Source of the DNA: a virus
Reading direction: 5' to 3' (one strand)
Virus record (IMG/VR): IMGVR_UViG_3300042273_000209
DNA length: 36,310 bases
The notes beneath the pieces are model-generated. The model had not been told where the DNA came from. It saw nothing but the letters and a program-made list of their open reading frames with translations, and made no database searches. Below are positions 1 to 29,352 of the stretch, one piece after another. The position numbers and the translations under genes are program-made. Numbering within the stretch: position 1 is the first letter of the stretch; every line of letters begins with the position of its first letter.

Positions 1-90
1 CTGACGCCTTCGAAGGGACCGTCGTCGCCGGAGACGACCTGAAAGTTTCGGCGAGCGGTCGGCTGACCAACGGCATCGCGGCCGGAGAGC
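1..90. repeat. Terminal direct repeat, identical to 36221-36310 (circular permutation or assembly overlap)
   Basis: Bases 1-90 read identically to the last 90 bases of the window. Confidence 0.9.
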
Positions 91-197: not shown

Positions 198-512
198 ATG
201 AACCAGGCCCGAAAAGACGACCACGGCAAGCTTCGGTTTGACCTGATCCCGCCGGGGCCGCTGAAGGAAGTGGCCGCCATATACACCGTCGGGGCCGAGA
301 AATATGGCGACCGCAACTGGGAGCAGGGGTTGGCCTGGGGGCGCGTTTTTGCCGCCATCCAGCGCCACCTCTGGGCCTGGTGGGGCGGGGAGGAGCTAGA
401 CCCCGAGGACGGCCTGAGCCATTTGGCCCATGCGGCCTGGGGATGTTTCACGCTGATGGAGTACGCGCAGACCCACCCGGAGATGGACGAGAGGAAGGAG
501 GCGACAGAATGA
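198..512 (+). CDS. MazG-like dATP/dGTP diphosphohydrolase-domain protein (putative)
   Basis: Motif KDDHGKLRFDLIPP...GAEKYGDRNW...RHLWAW recalled from phage NTP pyrophosphohydrolase-like proteins; GGGAGG RBS before ATG 198. Confidence 0.5.
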   Translation: MNQARKDDHGKLRFDLIPPGPLKEVAAIYTVGAEKYGDRNWEQGLAWGRVFAAIQRHLWAWWGGEELDPEDGLSHLAHAAWGCFTLMEYAQTHPEMDERKEATE

Positions 513-757
513 GCATATCGCTCCGAATTCTCTCGCCGCCTGATCGACCTGGTGGTGGAGCGGGCGATGGAGATAGTGGGGGCCTCCTGATGGATTTTCC
601 GCTGACCTGCCCCAGGTGTGGATCACGCGAGATCTGCACGGCGGGGAGGGGAGAGCATCAGACGGAATATGGCCTGCACTGCTCCTCCTGTGGCCACGAG
701 GGGTGGGGGAAAACGATAAGTGAAGCGATAGATCAATGGGAGGCGGTGGAGGAATGA
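509..757 (+). CDS. Lar-family-like restriction alleviation zinc-ribbon protein (putative)
   Basis: CPRCGS...CSSCGHEG...EAIDQWEA pattern; ATGA overlap with upstream stop; alternative start at 590. Confidence 0.5.
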   Translation: MSISLRILSPPDRPGGGAGDGDSGGLLMDFPLTCPRCGSREICTAGRGEHQTEYGLHCSSCGHEGWGKTISEAIDQWEAVEE

Positions 758-1020
758 ATCACACGCCGGGACCGTGGTCTGTAGAGGCAATTTACGCATT
801 GCTGCGATTCGGCAGAAAAAGCGGTGGATCGTGGGACGACATAGGCGAAGAACATGAATTTTTCCCTGACGAAGACGACGCCAATCTCATCGCCGCCGCT
901 CCGGAGATGCTGGAGGCGCTTGAAGCAATGGTGGAGATGGTAGAGATGAACGGGTTGGGCAAACGGTATGCGCTTGACCTTGCCGCGTCCGCCATCACGA
1001 AAGCGAGGGGAGAGGAATGA
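754..1020 (+). CDS. Hypothetical small phage protein (AAAPEMLEALE motif)
   Basis: GGAGG RBS; ATG overlaps upstream stop; motif common in small phage early proteins. Confidence 0.5.
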   Translation: MNHTPGPWSVEAIYALLRFGRKSGGSWDDIGEEHEFFPDEDDANLIAAAPEMLEALEAMVEMVEMNGLGKRYALDLAASAITKARGEE

Positions 1021-1101
1021 GCCACGTGGATGTTGTCGGGCATGTCTACGCCGGGCATGAGGACGAGTTGAATCCCTATCTCGGGCAGGGGGTGGTAGTG
1101 G

Positions 1102-1266
1102 ATGACGTTTGATGAGCTGAAAGCTGTCGTCGTCGAGTGGTACGAGGCTGACGTTGGCAACGCAAAGGCAGACAAGTATTTGCGCCGGATAAACGCACAA
1201 CAGAGACTCGAACTGGCCGCCCGCTGTCTGATTGAAGAGGGCGGGAAGGCGGAGGTGACGGAATGA
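1102..1266 (+). CDS. Hypothetical small protein (54 aa)
   Basis: Hand-found ORF below the ORF-track cutoff; its stop overlaps the ATG of the next small ORF (1263-1397), which in turn overlaps 1394. Confidence 0.3.
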   Translation: MTFDELKAVVVEWYEADVGNAKADKYLRRINAQQRLELAARCLIEEGGKAEVTE

Positions 1267-1393
1267 GCCATACGCAGAAGGCGCTGAAGGCTGGCGACGG
1301 CACGGCGTATAGATGCTACGAGTTTGCGGCAGCCAAGATGGCCTCTCTGGACCTGGCGACGGCTCTGGTGAGTCTACGAAGGGGCGCGAACGA

Positions 1394-1552
1394 ATGACTC
1401 GCCAGCGCTGTCAGATCTATTCCCGCGTCGTCGGATTTCTCACCCCCATCTCGCAGTGGAACAAGGGCAAGCAGGAGGAGTTCAGGGACAGGAAGACGTT
1501 TGATAAGCAGTTGAGGGGCAAACGCATCGGAACGTCACAAACGCATCATTAG
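1394..1552 (+). CDS. Small protein resembling the C-terminal glycyl-radical loop of class III ribonucleotide reductase NrdD
   Basis: SRVVGFLTPISQWNKGKQEEFRDRKTF matches the NrdD C-terminal motif R-V-x-G-Y-L-x-P-x3-W-N-x-GK-Q-x-E; start 1394 preferred over 1313 (better RBS, ATGA coupling). Confidence 0.4.
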   Translation: MTRQRCQIYSRVVGFLTPISQWNKGKQEEFRDRKTFDKQLRGKRIGTSQTHH

Positions 1553-1562
1553 GAGGTTGCCG

Positions 1563-2072
1563 ATGAGCCGCATTGACAAGGTCGTTAGCGTCCTGGAGTT
1601 GCTGTTGAGGAGGCACAAGGAGCCCCTGCTGGTCCTGCTGGGCGAGGTGGATCCGCCGGCGCTTTATCACTGGGCCGAGATCCTTCCCGTCCGCGGAGAG
1701 GATATTGGCCGAGTCGGCCGAGTCGATGGATCGCCTGGTACTCCCGAGCAGGAACGCCTTGTCTCGTCGGTGGACGTCATTGAGAGGGCTATCGACAAGG
1801 CCGGAGGGTGGGCGGGCATTGTCGCGGCAACACGGGAGGTGCGGCAGCGGGAACCGATGGGGTGGAACCTATTCGTCGAGCACGTGCTCTGGGTGGGCGA
1901 GGGCTCGAAGCTCGATCTTGCCGGCGGCCAGCTGGACAAGATCTGCGACAGATACGGGGTTTGCCGGGCGACGGTCTGGAGATGGAGGGCGCAGATCCCC
2001 AGGTTGATCGCTCGACAGGCCTGCCATGGAGGGCAACGGGTCTTCGCCTTCTGGGTCTCCGTGCAACATTAA
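1563..2072 (+). CDS. Hypothetical protein with C-terminal HTH-like segment
   Basis: AGGAGG RBS 6 nt before ATG; C-terminal LDKICDRYGVCRATVWRWR resembles a DNA-binding HTH. Confidence 0.5.
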   Translation: MSRIDKVVSVLELLLRRHKEPLLVLLGEVDPPALYHWAEILPVRGEDIGRVGRVDGSPGTPEQERLVSSVDVIERAIDKAGGWAGIVAATREVRQREPMGWNLFVEHVLWVGEGSKLDLAGGQLDKICDRYGVCRATVWRWRAQIPRLIARQACHGGQRVFAFWVSVQH

Positions 2073-2251
2073 AGTATCATCAAAGTATAGGCTAAACGTG
2101 CTATTGAATATCGGGAATGGGCTGTATGCTTATAGTGTGGCGCAAGTTGGGGGACTGAGTATCGGGCCTCCGCCGCCGACGAGGGACAGATGCCCCTCGA
2201 AAGAGCAGCCTCGGCCACACCTGGCCGGGGCTTTATTTGTGAGGTGAGCCC

Positions 2252-2557
2252 ATGCCAAGGAAGCCAGGGGAGCAGTATGCGACCAAACGGCGCAAGGACA
2301 GAGAGCGACGGTACAACGCCTCCCGTCCTGCACGGCATGGATTCTATGCTTCTCCAGAGTGGAGACGAGTGAGGGATTGGTACCGAACCAGACATCCGCT
2401 CTGTGAGGAGTGCCAGAGACAGGGACGCGTGGCGGCTGCTGAGTTGGTCCACCATAAAGTGGAGATATCAGAGGGTGGCGAGCCGCTGGACGTGGAGAAT
2501 CTAGAAAGCCTTTGCAGGAGCTGTCATAGCAAGGTGCATGGGTTCAAGCAAGGGTAG
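2252..2557 (+). CDS. HNH endonuclease
   Basis: CEECQRQGR...AELVHHKVEI...LESLCRSCHSKVH signature; typical partner of terminase. Confidence 0.8.
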   Translation: MPRKPGEQYATKRRKDRERRYNASRPARHGFYASPEWRRVRDWYRTRHPLCEECQRQGRVAAAELVHHKVEISEGGEPLDVENLESLCRSCHSKVHGFKQG

Positions 2558-6608: not shown

Positions 6609-7914
6609 GCCAAAAAAGGAGGTGAAAACCCTGAAAAAGAGCGTTTTCGCGCAAATAAAAGACATTTTTCGGCGGGGATTGTACCCCGGAGGACACCCGT
6701 CGGAAGCCGAGATCGTTCGCATACTCACGGGGGCAAGCCTGACGGGACACACCGTGGACGAAGAAAAAGCCATGAGGTTCTCGGCGGTTTACTCCTGCGT
6801 GCGCGTTCTCTCGGAGTCAGTGGCGCAGTTGCCGCTCAAAATCTACCGGCGCAAGGGGGACGGGAGGCAGGAGGCTGCCGACCATTATCTTTATCCACTC
6901 CTGCACGGTGCCCCGAACCCTCGGCAGACGGCGTTCTCGTTCTGGGAGGCCGTCACCGCGAGCCTCGCTCTCTGGGGCAACGCCTACGCCCTCATCGACC
7001 TTGACAACGCCGGCAGGGTGGCAGCGCTCTGGTTCCTCGATCCGTCCACGGTCACACCCAGGAAAGTTCTGACCACTGGCGAGCTTGTTTATGACGTGGC
7101 GATGAAGGACGGCACCAGCCGGACGTTCCTGTGGGGAGAACTGTTCCACATCCCGGGGCTGGGCTTCGACGGCCTTCGGGGTCATTCCGTGGTGAGGGTG
7201 GCGGCGGAGGCTATCGGGCAGGGGATAGCGGCCAGCGAGTACGCTGGGAGATTTTTCGACAATGACGCGACACCGAGGGGTGTACTGGAAACGGACGCTT
7301 TTTTCAAAGACCCGTCTGTCGTCGAACGCCTCAGGAGGTCATGGAACGATCTCTACCAGGGGACAAACAACGCCCACCGGGTGGCCATCCTTGAAAACGG
7401 TCTGAAATTCAAACCGCTGACCATCAACCCCGAGGACGCGCAACTGCTCGAAACGCGCAAGTTCAACAGGTCTGAAATCGCCGGGATCTTCCGTGTGCCC
7501 CTGCACATGATCGGCGACCTGGACAAGGCGACGTTCAGCAACATCGAACACCAGAGTATCGACTTCGTGAAATTCAGTCTCTCGCCATGGCTCAAAAGGA
7601 TTGAACAGGCTATATCCCTGCAACTCTTCTCTCCGGGGGAGCGTAAGCGGTATTTTGCCGAGTTCAAGCCGGAAGGGATGCTCAAAGGGGACGTCAAGAG
7701 CAGGTATGAGGCATACGAGGTGGCTATCCGCAGCGGTTGGATGAGCATCAACGAGGTCCGTGGACTGGAGAATTTGAACCCCGTAGACGGTGGAGACGAG
7801 CACTATCTCCAGATGCAGATGATACCCATCTCGCAGGCGGGAAAGGAGGCAGAGGATGGACAGGGAAATTCGAGCGATCCCGGCGGAGTTCCGGGTGAAG
7901 GAATCGGAGAATGA
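6607..7914 (+). CDS. Portal protein, HK97 family
   Basis: FSAVYSCVRVLSESVAQLPLKIYRR and downstream portal blocks; start uncertain (TTG 6607, CTG 6631 after AAGGAGGTG RBS, or ATG 6772). Confidence 0.8.
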   Translation: MPKKEVKTLKKSVFAQIKDIFRRGLYPGGHPSEAEIVRILTGASLTGHTVDEEKAMRFSAVYSCVRVLSESVAQLPLKIYRRKGDGRQEAADHYLYPLLHGAPNPRQTAFSFWEAVTASLALWGNAYALIDLDNAGRVAALWFLDPSTVTPRKVLTTGELVYDVAMKDGTSRTFLWGELFHIPGLGFDGLRGHSVVRVAAEAIGQGIAASEYAGRFFDNDATPRGVLETDAFFKDPSVVERLRRSWNDLYQGTNNAHRVAILENGLKFKPLTINPEDAQLLETRKFNRSEIAGIFRVPLHMIGDLDKATFSNIEHQSIDFVKFSLSPWLKRIEQAISLQLFSPGERKRYFAEFKPEGMLKGDVKSRYEAYEVAIRSGWMSINEVRGLENLNPVDGGDEHYLQMQMIPISQAGKEAEDGQGNSSDPGGVPGEGIGE

Positions 7915-8435: not shown

Positions 8436-9623
8436 ATGAATATCAGGGAAATGATGGAACAGCGCGCAACCCTTGTTGCAGAGGCCCGGAAGCTGCTTGA
8501 CGTTGCCGAGGGCGAGAAGCGGGAACTGAACGCTGAAGAGCGGACGCAGTACGACAAGATTTTTGAAGAGGCTCGCACCCTGGGTGACAAGATTCAGCGC
8601 GAGCAGGAGCTTCGCGAAGAGGAAAGGCGGCTCGCCGAGGCCGGCCGGCTGGAACCCGAGGGGAAAAAGGAAAATCCCGAAGAGCGCAAGCTTAAAGCGT
8701 TCCGCAATTTCCTTGTCACGGGCAACGCCGCGGAATATCGCGCACTGGCTAACGACACCGACGAGACGGGTGGATTCCTTCACGCTGCGGAGCAGTTTAT
8801 CACTCGGCTCATCAAGGGACTGGATGACAGGGTATTTGTCCGGCAGTACGCCACCGTCCTGCCCGTGACCAGCTCCGATACTCTCGGTGTTCCCGTCCTG
8901 ACCGCAGACCCGGGAGACCCCACGTGGACAACGGAAATCGCCGCTCCCTCCGAGGACAGCACCATGGCCTTCGGACGGCGCAGCCTGCAGCCCGAACAGC
9001 TCTCCAAGCTGATCAAAATTTCCATGAAGCTCCTTCGGACCTCGGCCCTGCCCATCGAGAATCTCGTGGCGGACAGGCTCGCGTACAAGTTCGCCGTGGC
9101 GCAGGAAAACGCGTTCCTCAACGGCGACGGCGACGGGCAGCCTCTCGGCATTTTCACCGCAAGCGACGACGGAATCCCGACTACTCGCGACGTGAGCACC
9201 GGCAACAGCGATACGGCGTTGACAGCGGACGGGTTGATCAACGCGAAATTCGCGCTCAAGGCTCAGTATCGCGGCTCCTGCCGTTGGATCTTCCATCGAG
9301 ACGCGGTGAAGATGATCTCCACGCTCAAGGACGGGGAAGGTCAGTACCTTTGGAGACCGGGGATGCTCATGAACGAGCCGGACATGCTTCTTGGGCATCC
9401 CGTTGACGAGAGCGAGTATGTGCCCAACACCTTTACCACCGGCCTGTACGTCGGCGCGCTCTGCAACTGGAGTAACTACTGGATTGCCGAGCTCCAGGGC
9501 GTGGAGCTCCAGAGGCTCGTAGAACTCTACGCGGGAACCTCGCAGATCGGATTCATCGGCCGGATGTATGCCGACGGCGCTCCCGTCCTTGCGGAATCCT
9601 TTGTCCGCGTCAAGCTCGGATAG
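8436..9623 (+). CDS. Major capsid protein, HK97 fold, with N-terminal coiled-coil delta domain
   Basis: GGAGGT RBS; ATG next to protease stop; 395 aa. Confidence 0.9.
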   Translation: MNIREMMEQRATLVAEARKLLDVAEGEKRELNAEERTQYDKIFEEARTLGDKIQREQELREEERRLAEAGRLEPEGKKENPEERKLKAFRNFLVTGNAAEYRALANDTDETGGFLHAAEQFITRLIKGLDDRVFVRQYATVLPVTSSDTLGVPVLTADPGDPTWTTEIAAPSEDSTMAFGRRSLQPEQLSKLIKISMKLLRTSALPIENLVADRLAYKFAVAQENAFLNGDGDGQPLGIFTASDDGIPTTRDVSTGNSDTALTADGLINAKFALKAQYRGSCRWIFHRDAVKMISTLKDGEGQYLWRPGMLMNEPDMLLGHPVDESEYVPNTFTTGLYVGALCNWSNYWIAELQGVELQRLVELYAGTSQIGFIGRMYADGAPVLAESFVRVKLG

Positions 9624-9654
9624 TGGGTGAAGGCGTGAATCTCGCTGAAAATAG

Positions 9655-9684
9655 AAAGAGGGGCTTTAAGCCCCTCTTTTTTTA
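9655..9684 (+). terminator. Rho-independent terminator after capsid gene
   Basis: gaggggc-loop-gcccctc followed by 7 T. Confidence 0.7.
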
Positions 9685-9707
9685 CATTCTGACAAGGAGA
9701 TGAAGGC

Positions 9708-23713: not shown

Positions 23714-24261
23714 TGGCGCGATTTGACGATTGTCTACAGGTGGTGCTGGGCTTCGAGGGCGGGTACAGCCACCACGAGGCCGACCGGGGAGGCCGCACGA
23801 ACTGGGGCATCACGGAGGCGACGCTAAAAGAGGCCCGCAAGCGCGGCATCGTGGGTCACTCCGACATTGCGCGACTCAAAACCCACGAGGCCGCAGCCAT
23901 CTATGAGGCGCTCTACTGGGTGCCGTCTCGGGCCGACGACATGCCGCAGCCGCTCGACCTCGTCGTCTTCGACTGCGCCGTTAACCACGGCGTCGGGGGG
24001 GCCGGTCGCCTCCTGCAGGAGGCGGTCAACGCCGTGATGGACGCCGATCTTGTGGTGGATGGAATCGTCGGACCGGCGACACAGCGAGAGTTAATGAAAG
24101 CCCTGGCTGCCAATCGCCCCGAGGCGCTGGCCCTGGCTATGCTGGCCATGAGGGCCCGCTATTTCGTCCGTATCGTCGAGGGCAACCCCAGTCAGCGGGC
24201 GTTTTTCTGGGGCTGGGTGCGTCAGAGAGTGGCCAACCTTATCGACAAGCTCAGGAGGTGA
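23713..24261 (+). CDS. Endolysin, glycoside hydrolase family 108-like with peptidoglycan-binding C-terminus
   Basis: VLGFEGGYSHHEADRGGRTNWGIT motif. Confidence 0.8.
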   Translation: MARFDDCLQVVLGFEGGYSHHEADRGGRTNWGITEATLKEARKRGIVGHSDIARLKTHEAAAIYEALYWVPSRADDMPQPLDLVVFDCAVNHGVGGAGRLLQEAVNAVMDADLVVDGIVGPATQRELMKALAANRPEALALAMLAMRARYFVRIVEGNPSQRAFFWGWVRQRVANLIDKLRR

Positions 24262-24267
24262 GGCCCT

Positions 24268-24585
24268 GTGAGCGAGGATAGAGTGTATGGACTCCAGCAG
24301 GACATTGAGGAGATAAAGGACAGTTTAAAGGAACTGGCCAAGGCATACACGGAACTGGCCCTCCACAACCAGCGTCTCGTGACGTTGGAACAAGGGCTCC
24401 AGGGTATCACCAAGGACGTCCGGCGCATACAGGAGACATGCCTCGTGCGGGGCGCAAAGTTAGACCGACTGGGCGAGGCCCCCCAGGACTGGTGGGAGCG
24501 GAACTTCTCGTCCGCCGGGGTTAAATTACTCTGGCTCGTCGTCGGCGGCATCGTGGGGACGATCATCGCGAGGTATGCGAGATGA
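24268..24585 (+). CDS. Lysis-cassette protein, coiled coil plus C-terminal TM helix
   Basis: GTG start after GGAGGTGAGG; C-terminal VKLLWLVVGGIVGTIIA. Confidence 0.45.
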   Translation: MSEDRVYGLQQDIEEIKDSLKELAKAYTELALHNQRLVTLEQGLQGITKDVRRIQETCLVRGAKLDRLGEAPQDWWERNFSSAGVKLLWLVVGGIVGTIIARYAR

Positions 24586-24809
24586 AGAATATCGCACAAT
24601 GGCCGTTGCGAAAACCGTTAGCGCTGTTCGCCGCCGCACTCGTGGGCGGCGTCGTCGTCTGGAGCCTGGTCTGTCAACGCGATATCCCGCCCAACGTCAA
24701 GGATCTGACTCAGTGGTTCGCGGGTATCGTCCTGGCGGCCTATTTCGCGTCGAGCACGACGGAGGCGGTGAAGGGGGTCGAGAAGCGATGTCCGAGCGAC
24801 GGTGGCTAG
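24582..24809 (+). CDS. Holin-like protein (two TM segments)
   Basis: ATGA coupling; two hydrophobic helices in 75 aa. Confidence 0.5.
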   Translation: MKNIAQWPLRKPLALFAAALVGGVVVWSLVCQRDIPPNVKDLTQWFAGIVLAAYFASSTTEAVKGVEKRCPSDGG

Positions 24810-25060
24810 GCTGGCTGGCGGCTCTGGCGACAGCTCTGGCCTGGCTCGCTCGGGAGCTGCTTGTGGGCAAGACGCAGGAGCCCAAGCCCGTCGAGAGGAC
24901 AAAGGAGAAGGAGCGAGAGATTGTGGACGAAAGGGGGCGACACGATGAGGAGATCAGGAACGCAGAGGACGAGGCTCGTCGCCTGGTCGATGCTGCTGGC
25001 CTCGACGATCTTGTGGCTCGTGCCAATGAGCGTCTGCGCCGAAGTGAGGGTGACAGCTGA
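24788..25060 (+). CDS. i-spanin-like protein (N-terminal TM, charged coiled coil)
   Basis: MSERRWLGWLAALATALAWLA then KE/R-rich helix. Confidence 0.4.
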   Translation: MSERRWLGWLAALATALAWLARELLVGKTQEPKPVERTKEKEREIVDERGRHDEEIRNAEDEARRLVDAAGLDDLVARANERLRRSEGDS

Positions 25061-25322
25061 CGGCGAGGTCGTGATGACGGCTGAGGATTTCCGGGCGATC
25101 ATGGCTGACCTGGAGGCAGCAGAGGCGACGCGAGACGCCCTTGATGCCGCTCTCGCCACGGAGAGGGCGCGGGTGGACGACTACATGCTGGAGGTAGAGT
25201 CGCTGAGGTCCATCCTTGAGATCGAGAGGGACTCGTTCCGATCGGCGAGGCTTTCGGCAACAAAAGACAAATTCATCTGGGGATTCGTGGGGGCCCTCCT
25301 CGGGGCCGCCGCGAATAACTAG
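24945..25322 (+). CDS. o-spanin or u-spanin-like protein overlapping previous gene in another frame
   Basis: N-terminal signal-like segment ending LVPMSVC, coiled coil, C-terminal hydrophobic tail. Confidence 0.35.
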   Translation: MRRSGTQRTRLVAWSMLLASTILWLVPMSVCAEVRVTADGEVVMTAEDFRAIMADLEAAEATRDALDAALATERARVDDYMLEVESLRSILEIERDSFRSARLSATKDKFIWGFVGALLGAAANN

Positions 25323-25339
25323 GGAGAGGAGGTGGAGCA

Positions 25340-25459
25340 ATGAATAGTTTCGTAGCGCTGATTCTGGCCATGGCCTGTTTTGCCGGATTCATCCTGGCGC
25401 TTGACGCGCGCAAACGGAAGGCCCTCCAGAAGCAGATTGATGAGCTAAAGAAAAGATGA
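25340..25459 (+). CDS. Small TM peptide (39 aa)
   Basis: Strong GGAGAGGAGGTGGAG RBS; one TM helix; followed by terminator. Confidence 0.3.
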   Translation: MNSFVALILAMACFAGFILALDARKRKALQKQIDELKKR

Positions 25460-25463
25460 TGGC

Positions 25464-25496
25464 AAGAGTCCCCCTTTAGGGGGCTCTTTTTTTTTG
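25464..25496 (+). terminator. Rho-independent terminator ending the plus-strand late/lysis unit
   Basis: GC hairpin followed by 9 T. Confidence 0.7.
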
Positions 25497-25509
25497 CCTC
25501 CCTTCCACA

Positions 25510-25540
25510 ATAAAAAAGAGGGGCCTTTCGGCCCCTCTCT
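25510..25540 (-). terminator. Rho-independent terminator ending the minus-strand block
   Basis: Minus strand reads gaggggcc-gaaa-ggcccctc then TTTTTT. Confidence 0.7.
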
Positions 25541-25677
25541 CTCGCGGTGAAAAACTTACACTCGTCCATGTGTCTTCCTCCTCCCTCTCTACCAGCATCT
25601 CCACCCTGGGGTGTGATGTTGCCGGGCTTGTAGGCGCACCGGCGGCCTATGTCCCCTTTGGGGCTCGCTTTCTGCCC

Positions 25678-25974
25678 CTACAAATGCGTATACAGCCCTG
25701 TTTCGGCTGCGAAGACTGCCTGGAGCTGGTCGAAGTAAATGCCTTCGACCGTCTCCTCCGTTTCGACGTCTCCCCACTTCCCCAGCTTGCAAAACCGGAG
25801 GTCGTAGACGTCGGCTGGGGTCAATGTGACCTCCAGGTAGTTATACCTTGCGGATCCCCTGAATTTAAATCGCAGGGAATCCCTTGTAGCCACAAGGTGT
25901 TTTGCACCAGTCATGGCGACAAACATGTTGCCGCCGAGCTGGTCCAGTATCGTCGTTGCTACGGTGGTGTCCAT
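25678..25974 (-). CDS. Hypothetical protein (minus-strand block gene a)
   Basis: GGGGGAGG RBS upstream; balanced composition unlike antisense frames. Confidence 0.6.
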   Translation of the reverse strand: MDTTVATTILDQLGGNMFVAMTGAKHLVATRDSLRFKFRGSARYNYLEVTLTPADVYDLRFCKLGKWGDVETEETVEGIYFDQLQAVFAAETGLYTHL

Positions 25975-26006
25975 TTTCGTCCTCCCCCTTGTTTTTTTAC
26001 CTGACG

Positions 26007-26059
26007 GGCCTCATCAGTGGCGGCGTCACCGCCAGACGCCCGCGAAGGGCGTTTCGGCC
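26007..26059 (-). ncRNA. Type II hammerhead ribozyme motif, copy 1
   Basis: Minus strand: ggcc-GAAA-stem III (cgccc/gggcg)-UC cleavage site-stem I (uggcgg/ccgcca)-CUGAUGA-ggcc; all core nucleotides present. Confidence 0.55.
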
Positions 26060-26089
26060 TAGGCTTCCTCCTCGTCGGGGATATAGTCG

Positions 26090-26127
26090 ACCTTTCGGTG
26101 AAGATGCCAGGGGCCCTTCGGCCCCTG
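26090..26127 (-). repeat. Intercistronic repeat element A (hairpin plus aucuucaccgaaaggu box)
   Basis: Same 16-nt box and flanking GC hairpin recur at 26466-26505. Confidence 0.5.
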
Positions 26128-26144
26128 CCCCCTGGCATTAAGTT

Positions 26145-26435
26145 CTACAGCTCGATGACGTCCGGTGCGTCGCGCAGGATTTTCATGTACCGCAGATGCT
26201 GGTACATGTACTGCGGACCCTGGTTGATCTCGACGACCTCGACCTGGCCGCCGAGGGGTGTGGTGTGCAGAGTGACAACCTCTTCGATGCCCTCGCTGAC
26301 CTCCTCGCGGCTTGCCTCGGCCTCCTCGGTGCCCTCGGGCAGGGCGATGGCGATCCCGTCCTCGTCGCTGCCGGGGTACGTCTCCCAGAACTCCATGTGG
26401 CCCGGAATACGGGAACTCTCGATCCAAAATCCCAT
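26145..26435 (-). CDS. Hypothetical acidic protein (gene b)
   Basis: AAGGAGGG RBS upstream. Confidence 0.6.
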   Translation of the reverse strand: MGFWIESSRIPGHMEFWETYPGSDEDGIAIALPEGTEEAEASREEVSEGIEEVVTLHTTPLGGQVEVVEINQGPQYMYQHLRYMKILRDAPDVIEL

Positions 26436-26465
26436 GGCGATCCCTCCTTTTAGGGGCTATATGCA

Positions 26466-26505
26466 ACCTTTCGGTGAAGATAGTAGGGGCCCGAAGGGCT
26501 CCCGC
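26466..26505 (-). repeat. Intercistronic repeat element B (copy of box plus hairpin)
   Basis: Box identical to copy A; hairpin loop inverted with stem preserved. Confidence 0.5.
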
Positions 26506-26506
26506 G

Positions 26507-27064
26507 CTACGCGTCATCTCCCTTTTTCGCGATCGCCTCACGGGCGTTGTGGATGCCCGTGAGGACGCACGTGTACTCTTCTTTCAGGGCGGCGAGCGCC
26601 ACCCGTTTCCAGGCGGCGAGGGCCTCCTCTGGCGTCGGCGCGCGCCCAATCTCGCACCGACTCTTCATCCAGGAGGTCAGCCGATCGAACTGGCTTAGGC
26701 CCTCGACGCTGAACTCACAAACGTCACGGTATCTGTCGCTGAAACCGTGACGCAGCGTCACCAACCCCTGATGCCTCCCCTGGGCGGGGGAGATATACAG
26801 GTCCTCGACGCCGATGCCGTTGAACACGTCGAGGAAGAATTGCAAGGTGGACTCGATCTCAGACGCGGCGGCGAGTGCCGCCTCCGGGTGGGCGGCTGCC
26901 ATGGCCCGTGTGACCTCGGGGCCATATCCGCGATGCCCCGCCTCCCGGAACACGGCGTACCACCCCGCCGTGCCGTGGGGCGGCGTCGTCGTATCGTGCT
27001 GCTCCACCCCTCCGGAGAAAAAATCATCTCCGTGGGGCATGGGCCCCTCAGTGAACCACGACAT
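26507..27064 (-). CDS. Hypothetical protein (gene c)
   Basis: GAAGGAGGA RBS; protein-like composition. Confidence 0.6.
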   Translation of the reverse strand: MSWFTEGPMPHGDDFFSGGVEQHDTTTPPHGTAGWYAVFREAGHRGYGPEVTRAMAAAHPEAALAAASEIESTLQFFLDVFNGIGVEDLYISPAQGRHQGLVTLRHGFSDRYRDVCEFSVEGLSQFDRLTSWMKSRCEIGRAPTPEEALAAWKRVALAALKEEYTCVLTGIHNAREAIAKKGDDA

Positions 27065-27113
27065 CTTTTTCCTCCTTCCCCCGCCCGTGCGGGAATCAAC
27101 GGGGCCTGTGCCC

Positions 27114-27167
27114 CGGCCTCATCAGTGGCGGCTCTACCGCCAGACGCCCCTTGCGGGGCGTTTCGGC
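27114..27167 (-). ncRNA. Type II hammerhead ribozyme motif, copy 2
   Basis: Same architecture as copy 1; stem III closed by GCAA tetraloop, stem I loop differs; CUGAUGAG and GAAA cores intact. Confidence 0.55.
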
Positions 27168-27551
27168 CTAGGCGTCGTCGACGTCGTCGACGTCCTGCAG
27201 GGCCTCGAGGTGCTCCGCGATGAACTCGCGGAGTAGACGCCGTTTTTCCCTCATCGAGTCGGCCAGCTCGTAGTCTGCCGACTCGCTGACGGGGAGGGGG
27301 TACTCGCTGTACCCCATCCCCTTGCAGATGGCCCGCTCGACCATCTGCAGGAGCTTAAGGTCATACTGCCCCACGGGTTCGCCGTCGTACATCGCGAACC
27401 CGTGGACTAGTGCGTCTTGGACGCTGCGCCCCCACTGGCCAATCGTGCCAGCAGAGGCAAAAAACCCCACGTGGACACTGCTACCGCGCCGGGTGACGCG
27501 GTAGAGATCCCCGCGCCGGATCGGGTCGTGGTGCAATGAGAACCTTTTCAT
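27168..27551 (-). CDS. Hypothetical protein (gene d)
   Basis: GAAGGAGGA RBS before internal ATG; 5' UTR paralogous to that of gene c. Confidence 0.55.
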   Translation of the reverse strand: MKRFSLHHDPIRRGDLYRVTRRGSSVHVGFFASAGTIGQWGRSVQDALVHGFAMYDGEPVGQYDLKLLQMVERAICKGMGYSEYPLPVSESADYELADSMREKRRLLREFIAEHLEALQDVDDVDDA

Positions 27552-27622
27552 TCTGTCCTCCTTCCCCCGCCCCGTGGCGGGAGCACTGTCCCCCCTTGCG
27601 CCCTGTGGCGCAGGAGGGAGGG

Positions 27623-27652
27623 AGAAAAAAGGGGAGCCGAAGCCCCCCCTTT
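27623..27652 (-). terminator. Rho-independent terminator or attenuator after gene e
   Basis: Minus strand: 7-bp GC stem with UUCG tetraloop followed by UUUUUU. Confidence 0.6.
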
Positions 27653-27669
27653 GTCGGCGAGGCCTAGCT

Positions 27670-28116
27670 TCAGGCCTCGCCGTTGGCCCGTGCCGCCATC
27701 CGGCGAGCACGGGCAAGAGAGCCCGCCGGAAGCTCCGGGGCGTAAAAGCCCCGGTGGCGGAAGATTGCTGTCTTCCGCACGGATCCGTCCGGGAGCGTCT
27801 CTTCGACGGACTCCCGTACGGAGAAGGCGTACACGGGCGCGATGCCCGCGTTCGCTAGCTCGCGTTCGAGTGGGGCCATCAGCCACATGGCCCCTCCGAT
27901 CATGGCGAGGACCTCGTCGCCTTCGCCGACGTTCCCCGCCGCCCGCCGGGCGATTTCGGCAATCGCCCGGGCGCGAGCCTCGGGCTCCCCGTCGCGGGGG
28001 AGCTCCGTGAAGGTGAGGAGCTCCTTGAGCTCCTCGTGGTCGGCCCCGGTGAGGTCGACCACCCCGGCCTCGACCTGCTCGGTCGAGGCTTGGTGCTGCG
28101 TGAGATTCAGGATCAT
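27670..28116 (-). CDS. Hypothetical protein (gene e)
   Basis: AAGGAGGG RBS before ATG at 28116; longer upstream extension rejected. Confidence 0.55.
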   Translation of the reverse strand: MILNLTQHQASTEQVEAGVVDLTGADHEELKELLTFTELPRDGEPEARARAIAEIARRAAGNVGEGDEVLAMIGGAMWLMAPLERELANAGIAPVYAFSVRESVEETLPDGSVRKTAIFRHRGFYAPELPAGSLARARRMAARANGEA

Positions 28117-28270
28117 CCTGAATCCCTCCTTTCTGCCCCATCTGGGGGCGATGAGATCGGGCCGAGGCCCGTCGTTTCCTTTGTTCCCCCCGCTTGGCCG
28201 CCCGGAAAGGGCGTTGCCCGCCGACCGCAGCGTGGAGGCGCGGGGGTTGGTCGGCATCTACGGCCAGGAG

Positions 28271-28612
28271 CTAAACCTGGTCGTAGAGTTGTACCTCGCC
28301 GCGTCGGCGAGGCAGGAGGCGGTATTCCGTCACCGCCTCCGCCGAAGGAGCCACGTAGATCGTGGCCCCCACGGCCTTCTTCGCCGATTTCCCCCGCGCA
28401 AGGGGCGCGTAGGGTTCGGCGTCGTGGGCCCGGACGACGTAGATGCTGCCGCCCGGGCCCGCGTACTGCACGGCCTGGTCCCAGGACGTGGTGAAAAACG
28501 CCACGTCCCGGAACCCCCGCCTCTCCTCTTCCCCCGCACGGATGTTTCCCGTGCGGGACGAGGGGAGAATTTCCCTCAGGCCCCGGATGGGGCTCCCATG
28601 TAGAAGTTCCAT
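28271..28612 (-). CDS. PARP-like (H-Y-E type) mini ADP-ribosyltransferase candidate (gene f)
   Basis: LLHGS; F-x10-Y segment FFTTSWDQAVQY; later TEYRLL, read as the H-G-S / Y-x10-Y / catalytic Glu signatures of PARP and diphtheria-toxin-like ARTs. Confidence 0.4.
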   Translation of the reverse strand: MELLHGSPIRGLREILPSSRTGNIRAGEEERRGFRDVAFFTTSWDQAVQYAGPGGSIYVVRAHDAEPYAPLARGKSAKKAVGATIYVAPSAEAVTEYRLLPRRRGEVQLYDQV

Positions 28613-29323: not shown

Positions 29324-29352
29324 ATTATATATGCCGTTGGGCAGTTGTGCAA
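29324..29352 (-). promoter_or_regulatory. Sigma70-like promoter for the minus-strand block (TTGCAC-17-TATAAT)
   Basis: Near-consensus -35 and -10 with 17-nt spacer on the minus strand. Confidence 0.55.

Follow-up and report, generated by a model that had tools for sequence, protein, structure and literature searches.

In the 36,310-nucleotide (nt) stretch of viral DNA recorded in IMG/VR as IMGVR_UViG_3300042273_000209 (the window, meaning the whole stretch analyzed), which is from an uncultivated tailed phage, we identified a type II hammerhead ribozyme, HH#1, on the minus strand between two small genes of a minus-strand operon, gene b upstream and gene a downstream. Judged from its sequence, HH#1 is very likely a bona fide hammerhead that would cleave the operon transcript upstream of gene a, and it belongs, by the same kind of evidence, to a short-loop subclass of type II hammerheads that abounds in the genomes of tailed phages. 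The initial annotation of this DNA had described a single ribozyme; HH#1 is indeed present, and the operon that contains it also has a second type II hammerhead (HH#2) and a probable hepatitis delta virus (HDV)-like ribozyme. The parts of HH#1 and its immediate flanks are as follows.

26007..26059, minus strand: HH#1, type II hammerhead ribozyme, short-loop subclass (sequence read directly, minimum free energy [MFE] fold, Rfam model RF02276, and our model R1)
26060, minus strand: A directly 5' of HH#1 stem II, the middle base of a TAG overlapping the ribozyme start
26059-26056, minus strand: stem II, 3' strand
26055-26053, minus strand: G12 A13 A14
26052, minus strand: A15.1
26051-26037, minus strand: stem III hairpin
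26036, minus strand: U16.1
26035, minus strand: C17, with the predicted scissile bond between 26035 and 26034
26034-26018, minus strand: stem I hairpin
26017-26011, minus strand: C3-A9 box, CUGAUGA
26010-26007, minus strand: stem II, 5' strand
26001..26006, minus strand: tail CGUCAG directly 3' of stem II, complementary to box CUGAUG (26017-26012)

Read from 26059 to 26007, the minus strand is GGCC GAAA CGCCC UUCGC GGGCG UC UGGCGG UGACG CCGCCA CUGAUGA GGCC, which agrees letter for letter with the sequence in the initial annotation. The invariant core (C3 U4 G5 A6 N7 G8 A9 plus G12 A13 A14) is complete and shows no deviation. The A15.1-U16.1 pair closes stem III, and the next base is C17, as expected from the rule that this position is H (not G). 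Stem I has six base pairs (bp) plus a U.G pair, stem III has five plus the A-U pair, and stem II has four (GGCC/GGCC), with G10.1 (26010) paired with C11.1 (26056) at its base. The earlier claim that every invariant hammerhead element is present in the right order, including A15.1/U16.1, C17, and three helices, was thus verified. Stems I and III are capped by loops and stem II is open, giving the order II(3')-GAAA-III-UH-I-CUGANGA-II(5'); a descriptor for type II matches this arrangement and those for type I and type III do not, so the type II assignment also stands. The location between genes b and a was correctly given, as the gene b stop lies 85 nt upstream and the gene a start 32 nt downstream. 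For the isolated 53-nt RNA, the MFE structure is the three-way junction, at -26.6 kcal/mol (z = -2.4 versus shuffles).

A scan of the window at the Rfam gathering thresholds returned no matches. The Rfam type II model (RF02276, Hammerhead_II) aligns end to end with 26002-26059 at 29.0 bits, versus a gathering score of 37, with E values of 5.6e-4 for a 401-nt region and 0.051 for the whole window and all 4227 families. The initial annotation had proposed a search with hammerhead covariance models and had taken the lack of an above-threshold hit as grounds for rejecting the element, and, formally, that is the outcome of the search. This criterion is too strict: of 34 hammerheads that R1 detects in seven multi-hammerhead phage loci, only 3 pass the Rfam threshold. 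In the Rfam type II consensus, loop I is ~10 nt long and forms a pseudoknot with the 3' tail; HH#1 scores low because its loop I has 5 nt and its stem II 4 bp, unlike this long-loop, pseudoknotted consensus. Missing the Rfam cut-off is a property of the model and not evidence against HH#1.

R1 is a covariance model of our own, built from a seed of 38 equal-length short-loop phage hammerheads with the window excluded. It scores HH#1 at 69.3 bits (E = 5.2e-18), the best non-hammerhead match in the window reaching 13.9 bits. Changes on both sides were found in 13 of the 16 base pairs in the seed; as the seed sequences were picked by a pairing descriptor, the percentage paired is circular, whereas the diversity of pair types is not. 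Further, a strict hammerhead descriptor covering all three topologies found three matches in 300 dinucleotide-preserving shuffles of the whole window (~0.01 expected per shuffled window, even with minimal stems), versus two in the real window. Both of these are on the minus strand and in one operon, the second being HH#2.

27115..27168, minus strand: HH#2, second type II hammerhead (descriptor, RF02276, R1), with predicted cleavage between 27143 and 27142

HH#2 reads GGCC GAAA CGCCCC GCAA GGGGCG UC UGGCGG UAGAG CCGCCA CUGAUGA GGCC and lies 1.1 kb from HH#1, with which it shares an identical core, stem I, and stem II, the differences being in loops I and III. It scores 63.2 bits with R1 (E = 3e-16) and 34.0 bits with RF02276 (gathering score of 37). 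In context, its MFE structure is the active fold, with a stem II probability of ~0.9 to 0.95. A CCCGC-ACGG-GCGGG hairpin, similar to hairpins in the spacer at 27555-27669 (see below), precedes the Shine-Dalgarno (SD) sequence downstream of HH#2.

The subclass was delineated by scanning IMG/VR with patterns that fix core nucleotides only, part of the sample coming from a pattern that fixes GGCC. All three helices were also present in 107 of the first 120 core-pattern loci. The collection comprises 269 distinct type II hammerheads, 182 of them short-loop and 87 classical (long-loop), and the short-loop members, from loci L088 to L307, are phylogenetically related sequences. They are characterized by a 4-bp stem II, a 17-nt stem I hairpin, a loop I beginning with U, and an A at position -1. 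The A directly 5' of stem II was found in 177 of the 182 members and also precedes both HH#1 and HH#2; U occupies the first position of loop I in 158 of 159 members (in HH#1, at 26028), and C17 occurs in 177 of 182. HH#1 is a member by its R1 score, the A at 26060, and the U at 26028.

Several loci in this survey carry many hammerheads. Ten R1 matches occur within 2.5 kb of L259 (11887-14426, plus strand), and three of them are exactly 237 nt apart with identical scores, which points to a tandemly repeated unit; L140 has nine hammerheads by the descriptor, and L221 has six by R1. In addition, a hammerhead scoring 62.9 bits with R1 was found on the minus strand (7031-7098) of contig JAQTLI010000126.1 (L426) of a Methylobacter sp. 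metagenome-assembled genome. It has the stem I and loop of HH#2 (UGGCGG UAGAG CCGCCA) in an unrelated and A+T-richer context. From the sequences, this identity would mean either that the module moves between genomes or that stem I itself is favored. As the match in this one genome shares a stem I and has unrelated flanks, we drew no inference about the host from the genome scan.

Placement was analyzed for the 157 subclass members with at least 400 nt of flanking sequence, using the antisense strand as the control. An open reading frame (ORF) of at least 60 codons ends no more than 10 nt upstream of the ribozyme in 132 of these (antisense, 20/157), with a median gap of 0, and in 77 a stop codon abuts or overlaps the ribozyme. 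Downstream, an SD sequence and a start codon opening at least 50 codons lie within 40 nt in 113 of 157 cases (antisense, 6/157; median, 26 nt). The short-loop ribozymes therefore lie between cistrons, on the sense strand. HH#2 is an exact fit: it begins on the final base of the stop codon TAG (27170-27168) that ends a gene encoding 128 amino acids (aa), and the next start is 50 nt downstream. HH#1 also conforms, with an SD sequence and the gene a start 32 nt away; the TAG over its 5' edge closes only a spurious frame, the real gene b stop being the one 85 nt upstream. The regular layout of stop codon, ribozyme, ~26 nt, and start codon offers a concrete and testable model for the role of phage hammerheads.

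The third ribozyme candidate of the operon lies between the 113-aa and 149-aa genes.

28185..28255, minus strand: probable HDV-like ribozyme, with predicted cleavage 5' of G28255

It matches RF02682 at 37.3 bits, versus a gathering score of 44 (local E = 7e-6), and RF00094 (HDV) and RF01787 (drz-agam-1) match it in the same register. P1 has 7 of 7 bp, P2 also has 7 of 7 (CCCCCGC/GCGGGGG) and is a pseudoknot that the Rfam model leaves unscored, and P4 has 5 bp. A GGGCAAC junction with CC/GG available for P1.1 and a C-AAG segment are present, and P3 is weak, with two standard pairs and a C.U. When phage contigs were searched with a core-only HDV pattern, P1 was perfect in 22 of 120, with seven different P1 sequences, and 20 of these 22 had a P2 of 5 to 7 bp. 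Based on these sequence features, 28185-28255 is a probable HDV-like self-cleaving ribozyme. A search for a fourth ribozyme in the 115-nt spacer at 27555-27669 gave only noise-level Rfam matches; this spacer, between the 149-aa and 128-aa genes, contains a terminator-like hairpin with a U-tract (GGGGGGC UUCG GCUCCCC UUUUUU, 27632-27649, minus strand) and, after it, two small hairpins that precede an SD sequence.

In hammerhead chemistry, the 2' oxygen of C17 attacks its own 3' phosphate, leaving a 2',3'-cyclic phosphate and a 5'-OH. Once HH#1 is transcribed, this attack would break the RNA between 26035 and 26034. The upstream product would end in the stem III hairpin followed by UC with the 2',3'-cyclic phosphate, and the gene a mRNA would start at the first base of the stem I hairpin, which would carry a 5'-OH. 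The two halves would be joined only by the 4-bp stem II and therefore should separate. In the 3' product, the tail CGUCAG could then pair with the CUGAUG box, which would stack two hairpins at the 5' end, with 26 nt left before the start codon; in the predicted fold of this product, the stem I hairpin and the CUGAUG/CGUCAG hairpin are adjacent and the SD sequence is single stranded. Together with HH#2 and the HDV-like ribozyme, HH#1 would convert one transcript into several mRNAs with hairpin-capped ends and no 5' phosphate. In bacteria, mRNA decay that depends on the 5' end is slowed by a hairpin at that end and by the lack of a monophosphate there. Cleavage would thereby likely uncouple the stability and translation of neighboring cistrons. 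The subclass membership, the intercistronic placement, and the covariation described below were computed, and cleavage in vivo and its effects on stability and translation are what we infer. A cut in the polycistronic message just ahead of gene a had been proposed in the initial annotation, and processing of the transcript into separate mRNAs is also the consensus hypothesis for such elements (PMC3088659, PMC6765202; see also PMC6155905).

Several observations weigh against cleavage at HH#1 or against its importance. In its 87-nt native context, stem II of HH#1 is only ~5% probable in the equilibrium ensemble; the MFE structure of this context (-31.0 kcal/mol), in which the strand of stem III is base paired to the SD region, is 0.8 kcal/mol more stable than the active fold. 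The RF02276 score of 29.0 bits is under the curated Rfam threshold of 37. The full-length orthologous copies (L001 and L005 to L008) are identical across the ribozyme and thus offer no locus-specific covariation, and close homologs of gene a in L002 and L003 (89% identical) have no ribozyme. More generally, for no phage hammerhead has cleavage been proven to confer a physiological benefit (PMC6765202). The weakness of the active fold in the 87-nt context means that HH#1 may cleave slowly, partially, or only cotranscriptionally; the folding models therefore suggest that it may depend on cotranscriptional folding or cleave only in part.

The in-context ensemble prediction and the sub-threshold Rfam score would also fit a chance look-alike or a decayed, inactive relic, for example, a pair of G+C-rich terminator or insulator hairpins, particularly as the minimal hammerhead consensus arises by chance in large databases (PMC3088659). 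We consider this highly improbable, given that only ~0.01 descriptor matches are expected per shuffled window, that R1 gives HH#1 an E value of 5e-18, and that every invariant position of its core conforms. HH#1 also has the peripheral invariants of the subclass and stands on the sense strand upstream of an SD sequence and a start codon, although 85 nt from the gene b stop, and HH#2 has retained an intact core and intact stems while its loops differ. The pairing of HH#1 with HH#2 raises a different alternative, in which the 1108-nt RNA between 27142 and 26035 (the 185-aa gene and gene b) would bring its 5'-OH and 2',3'-cyclic phosphate ends together in a chimeric hammerhead and be ligated, by this ribozyme or by RtcB, into a circular or spliced product. 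The two ribozymes are on the same strand, 1108 nt apart, with identical stem I and GGCC/GGCC stem II sequences, and hammerhead-flanked units of viroids and retrozymes do circularize (PMC7761336). However, Perreault et al. found no spliced or circular RNA when they looked for such products of the tandem hammerheads of prophages (PMC3088659), the stem II strands of neighboring hammerheads in other phage loci, such as L153 and L102, would mismatch in a chimera, a 4-bp stem II is a weak clamp, and duplication explains the identity of HH#1 and HH#2 more simply. We therefore regard circularization or splicing as very unlikely and favor cleavage of the operon transcript into separate mRNAs.

Self-cleavage at HH#1 could nevertheless be regulated or self-limiting, with the tail CGUCAG (26006-26001) and the CUGAUG box forming an "off" hairpin that acts as a switch or timer. 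TCAG stands right after stem II in 77 of the 182 short-loop ribozymes, versus 0 to 7 of 182 at control offsets and 2 of 87 in the long-loop class. The tail, with the consensus YRUCAG, comprises the 5 to 6 nt directly after stem II and is complementary to the catalytic CUGAYG box; ~40% of the subclass, including HH#1, carry such a tail. Across the two main registers, the combinations of N7 and its tail partner are C-G (33), U-A (17), and U.G (3), with no mismatches (Fisher P of 5e-8 raw and 0.0067 after clustering at 80% identity). A compensatory swap between near-identical ribozymes (CUGACG/CGUCAG in L235 and CUGAUG/CAUCAG in L241) further backs the helix, as does the hairpin formed by box and tail in the predicted MFE structures of both the 170-nt intergenic RNA and the 3' cleavage product. 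Solved hammerhead structures indicate that C3, G5, A6, and G8 must be free for catalysis. As the helix would occupy these active-site nucleotides, it represents an "off" state that is exclusive of activity.

Some features of the same data point the other way. The tail is missing in HH#2 and in ~58% of the subclass and so is not required for function, the helix could act solely after cleavage as a 5'-end structure, and HH#1 itself has a U.G at the covarying position. The covariation comes from phylogenetically related sequences, part of which were gathered with a pattern that fixes GGCC. In the 87-nt context of HH#1, the box-tail pairs have an equilibrium probability of ~4%, similar to that of stem II. 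Overall, we suggest only tentatively, as a reading that falls somewhat short of being favored, that HH#1 is regulated or self-limiting in this way. That the subclass ribozymes carry a built-in, conserved "off" helix and are conformational switches instead of constitutive cutters is, in our view, plausible to a similar, not quite even degree. The helix could lock the 3' product after cleavage, act as a 5'-end structure or as a kinetic timer, or sense ribosome loading at the SD sequence ~20 nt farther on. Such a switch refines the favored explanation, cleavage upstream of gene a, and does not exclude it; what it would add concerns the fraction cleaved, irreversibility, or coupling to ribosome loading at the SD sequence. 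We found no description of the box-tail helix in the open-access literature searched. If confirmed, this covarying helix would be a natural regulatory add-on of interest both for ribozyme biology and for designers of ribozyme insulators.

The tail might also engage loop I, since loop I of HH#1 (UGACG) is complementary to CGUCA of the tail over 5 nt, which resembles the published type II pseudoknot. This complementarity is not kept in HH#2, L004, or other subclass members, and a loop I-tail pseudoknot as a tertiary contact of HH#1 is, therefore, unproven.

In the loci related to this region, the gene a family is not generally tied to the ribozyme. In L002 and L003, the gene a homologs start 15 nt after the upstream gene and the spacer is absent, so gene a does not require HH#1. 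L004 is a partial ortholog with a contig edge inside the ribozyme, in which stem I, the box, and the tail are kept; it departs from HH#1 only in loop I, at the free position N7 (C in place of U), and at one C of the tail. The remaining part of the ribozyme covers positions 1-39 (plus strand), and the contig begins at C17, one base ahead of the predicted 5' end of the cleavage product; this locus also encodes an 88%-identical gene a homolog, with an IS605-type TnpA/TnpB pair just downstream (489-2077, minus strand). A general link between the gene a family (phrog_9437) and this hammerhead was considered and rejected, as R1 matches only the partial L004 copy among 82 other loci. A further gene a homolog, in L087 (1501-1803), has a type III hammerhead upstream (592-645, plus strand) and a twister-P5 ribozyme downstream (2328-2398, plus strand), the latter scoring 50.7 bits versus a gathering score of 37.6.

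The phage itself has a large terminase ~50% identical to the terminases of phages of Firmicutes and encodes a GH108 endolysin, and a megablast search of 24000-28000 against GenBank phages gave no nucleotide match. The minus-strand operon runs, in order, from a promoter at ~29.3 kb through the ParB_N gene, the 113-aa gene, the HDV-like ribozyme, the 149-aa gene, the terminator-like hairpin, the 128-aa gene, HH#2, the 185-aa gene, gene b, a hairpin, HH#1, and gene a to a terminator at ~25.5 kb. Its genes and signals, other than the ribozymes, are as follows.

29324..29351, minus strand: sigma-70-like promoter candidate (TGCACA-16-TATAAT), by consensus match only, upstream of the ParB-like first gene
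28271-28612, minus strand: 113-aa gene
27670-28119, minus strand: 149-aa gene
27168..27554, minus strand: 128-aa gene, whose stop overlaps HH#2 (ORF list)
26507..27064, minus strand: 185-aa gene, the cistron downstream of HH#2 (ORF list)
26145..26435, minus strand: gene b, 96-aa acidic protein, function unknown, the cistron upstream of HH#1 (ORF list)
26100..26135, minus strand: G+C-rich hairpin, GCCAGGGG..AGGGGCC GAAG GGCCCCU GGC, without a U-tract, just after gene b
26067..26116, minus strand: 50-nt leader-like module ahead of HH#1, 80% identical to the gene b 5' leader (26443-26492), from a repeat search
25678..25974, minus strand: gene a, 98 aa, function unknown, phrog_9437 (ORF list; PHROG match, E = 9e-28)
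25510..25536, minus strand: intrinsic terminator of the operon, AGAGGGGCC GAAA GGCCCCUCU UUUUUU, read from sequence

Gene a has its SD sequence, GGGGGAGG, at 25981-25988, and 110 homologs of it were found; gene b was also called as a gene on L005 and L007, two independent contigs. Apart from the ParB-like gene, the operon encodes six small proteins for which Pfam gave nothing even at E values of up to 1, which fits published reports of ribozymes beside small ORFs of unknown function (PMC6155905). The hairpin after gene b contains a repeat (D20, 26109-26126) with a match in the terminator hairpin of the operon. The duplicated gene b leader consists of the hairpin tail, UCUUCACCGAAAGGU, and an SD sequence, and the TAG and HH#1 stand where the start codon would be. 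The presence of this 80% copy between gene b and HH#1 suggests a history of duplication through which, to judge from the sequences, the 26067-26116 module arose. Back-to-back intrinsic terminators (25464-25536) separate the ribozyme operon from convergent plus-strand lysis genes. Elsewhere in the window, sub-threshold Rfam matches to sraA, SorX, and Bp1_162 at 9601-9688 (plus strand) all fall on one strong terminator hairpin after a gene ending at 9623, and this element is probably a plain terminator.

These results turn an apparently plain spacer into a defined RNA-processing site and describe a seven-gene operon punctuated by three predicted ribozymes, a map that changes the annotation of the operon transcripts and of gene boundaries. 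As the Rfam threshold misses most short-loop members, counts of phage ribozymes based on it are underestimates. Further, the type II topology would leave a hairpin on both new ends, which provides another testable model for the role of hammerheads in bacteria and phages.

Bacteria and prophages commonly carry type II hammerheads, and in prophages genes are flanked by multiple hammerheads (Perreault et al. 2011, PMC3088659). HH#1 has the same core, open stem II, and capped stems I and III as these ribozymes (PMC3088659, RF02276), and it shares with them the intergenic site between small phage genes, the presence of more than one ribozyme per operon, and the A before stem II. It differs in that the RF02276 consensus has a stem II of 2 to 3 bp, a loop I of ~10 nt, and a pseudoknot of at least 4 bp with the 3' tail, whereas in HH#1 stem II is 4 bp long and loop I comprises 5 nt, or 3 nt if the U.G pair forms. 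In the 2011 study, cleavage was seen in vitro for each of the three tandem arrangements tested (from C. scindens, A. caulinodans, and A. tumefaciens), and in E. coli as well for the set from A. tumefaciens (PMC3088659). As in these prophage sets, including the A. tumefaciens ardA locus, several ribozymes on one strand interrupt a polycistronic run of small genes here, and the proposed role, processing into gene-length mRNAs, is alike; unlike in those sets, the three ribozymes here probably include an HDV-like one, and they flank other, unannotated genes (phrog_9437 among them).

Mixed phage ribozyme clusters, in which different classes lie close together beside small ORFs of unknown function (PMC6765202, PMC6155905), are a further parallel. 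The gene a homolog with a type III hammerhead and a twister-P5 ribozyme (L087) is one such case, and the window, which combines two hammerheads with an HDV-like element, shows no essential difference. Compared with the Faecalibacterium prausnitzii HDV-like ribozyme (RF02682), 28185-28255 has the nested double-pseudoknot layout, a P1 of 7 bp, a P2 of 7 bp, and P4, together with the GGGCAAC junction and the C-AAG segment with the catalytic C, and it departs from it in its sub-threshold score (37.3 versus 44 bits) and in a P3 of two standard pairs and a C.U. The hammerheads of viroids, satellites, and retrozymes resemble the short-loop ribozymes in that alternative pairing can sequester the core, which would gate activity through conformation. 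They differ in being type I or III elements of replicating or retrotransposing circular RNAs, whereas here a short 3' tail in the leader of a phage mRNA would do the pairing. Tandem ribozymes that would cut one message into gene-length parts are an arrangement already known from phages and prophages, and HH#1 belongs to one more instance of it; to these systems, our analysis adds a three-ribozyme operon map, the under-calling of the short-loop subclass by Rfam, a quantitative placement rule, and a covarying "off" helix.

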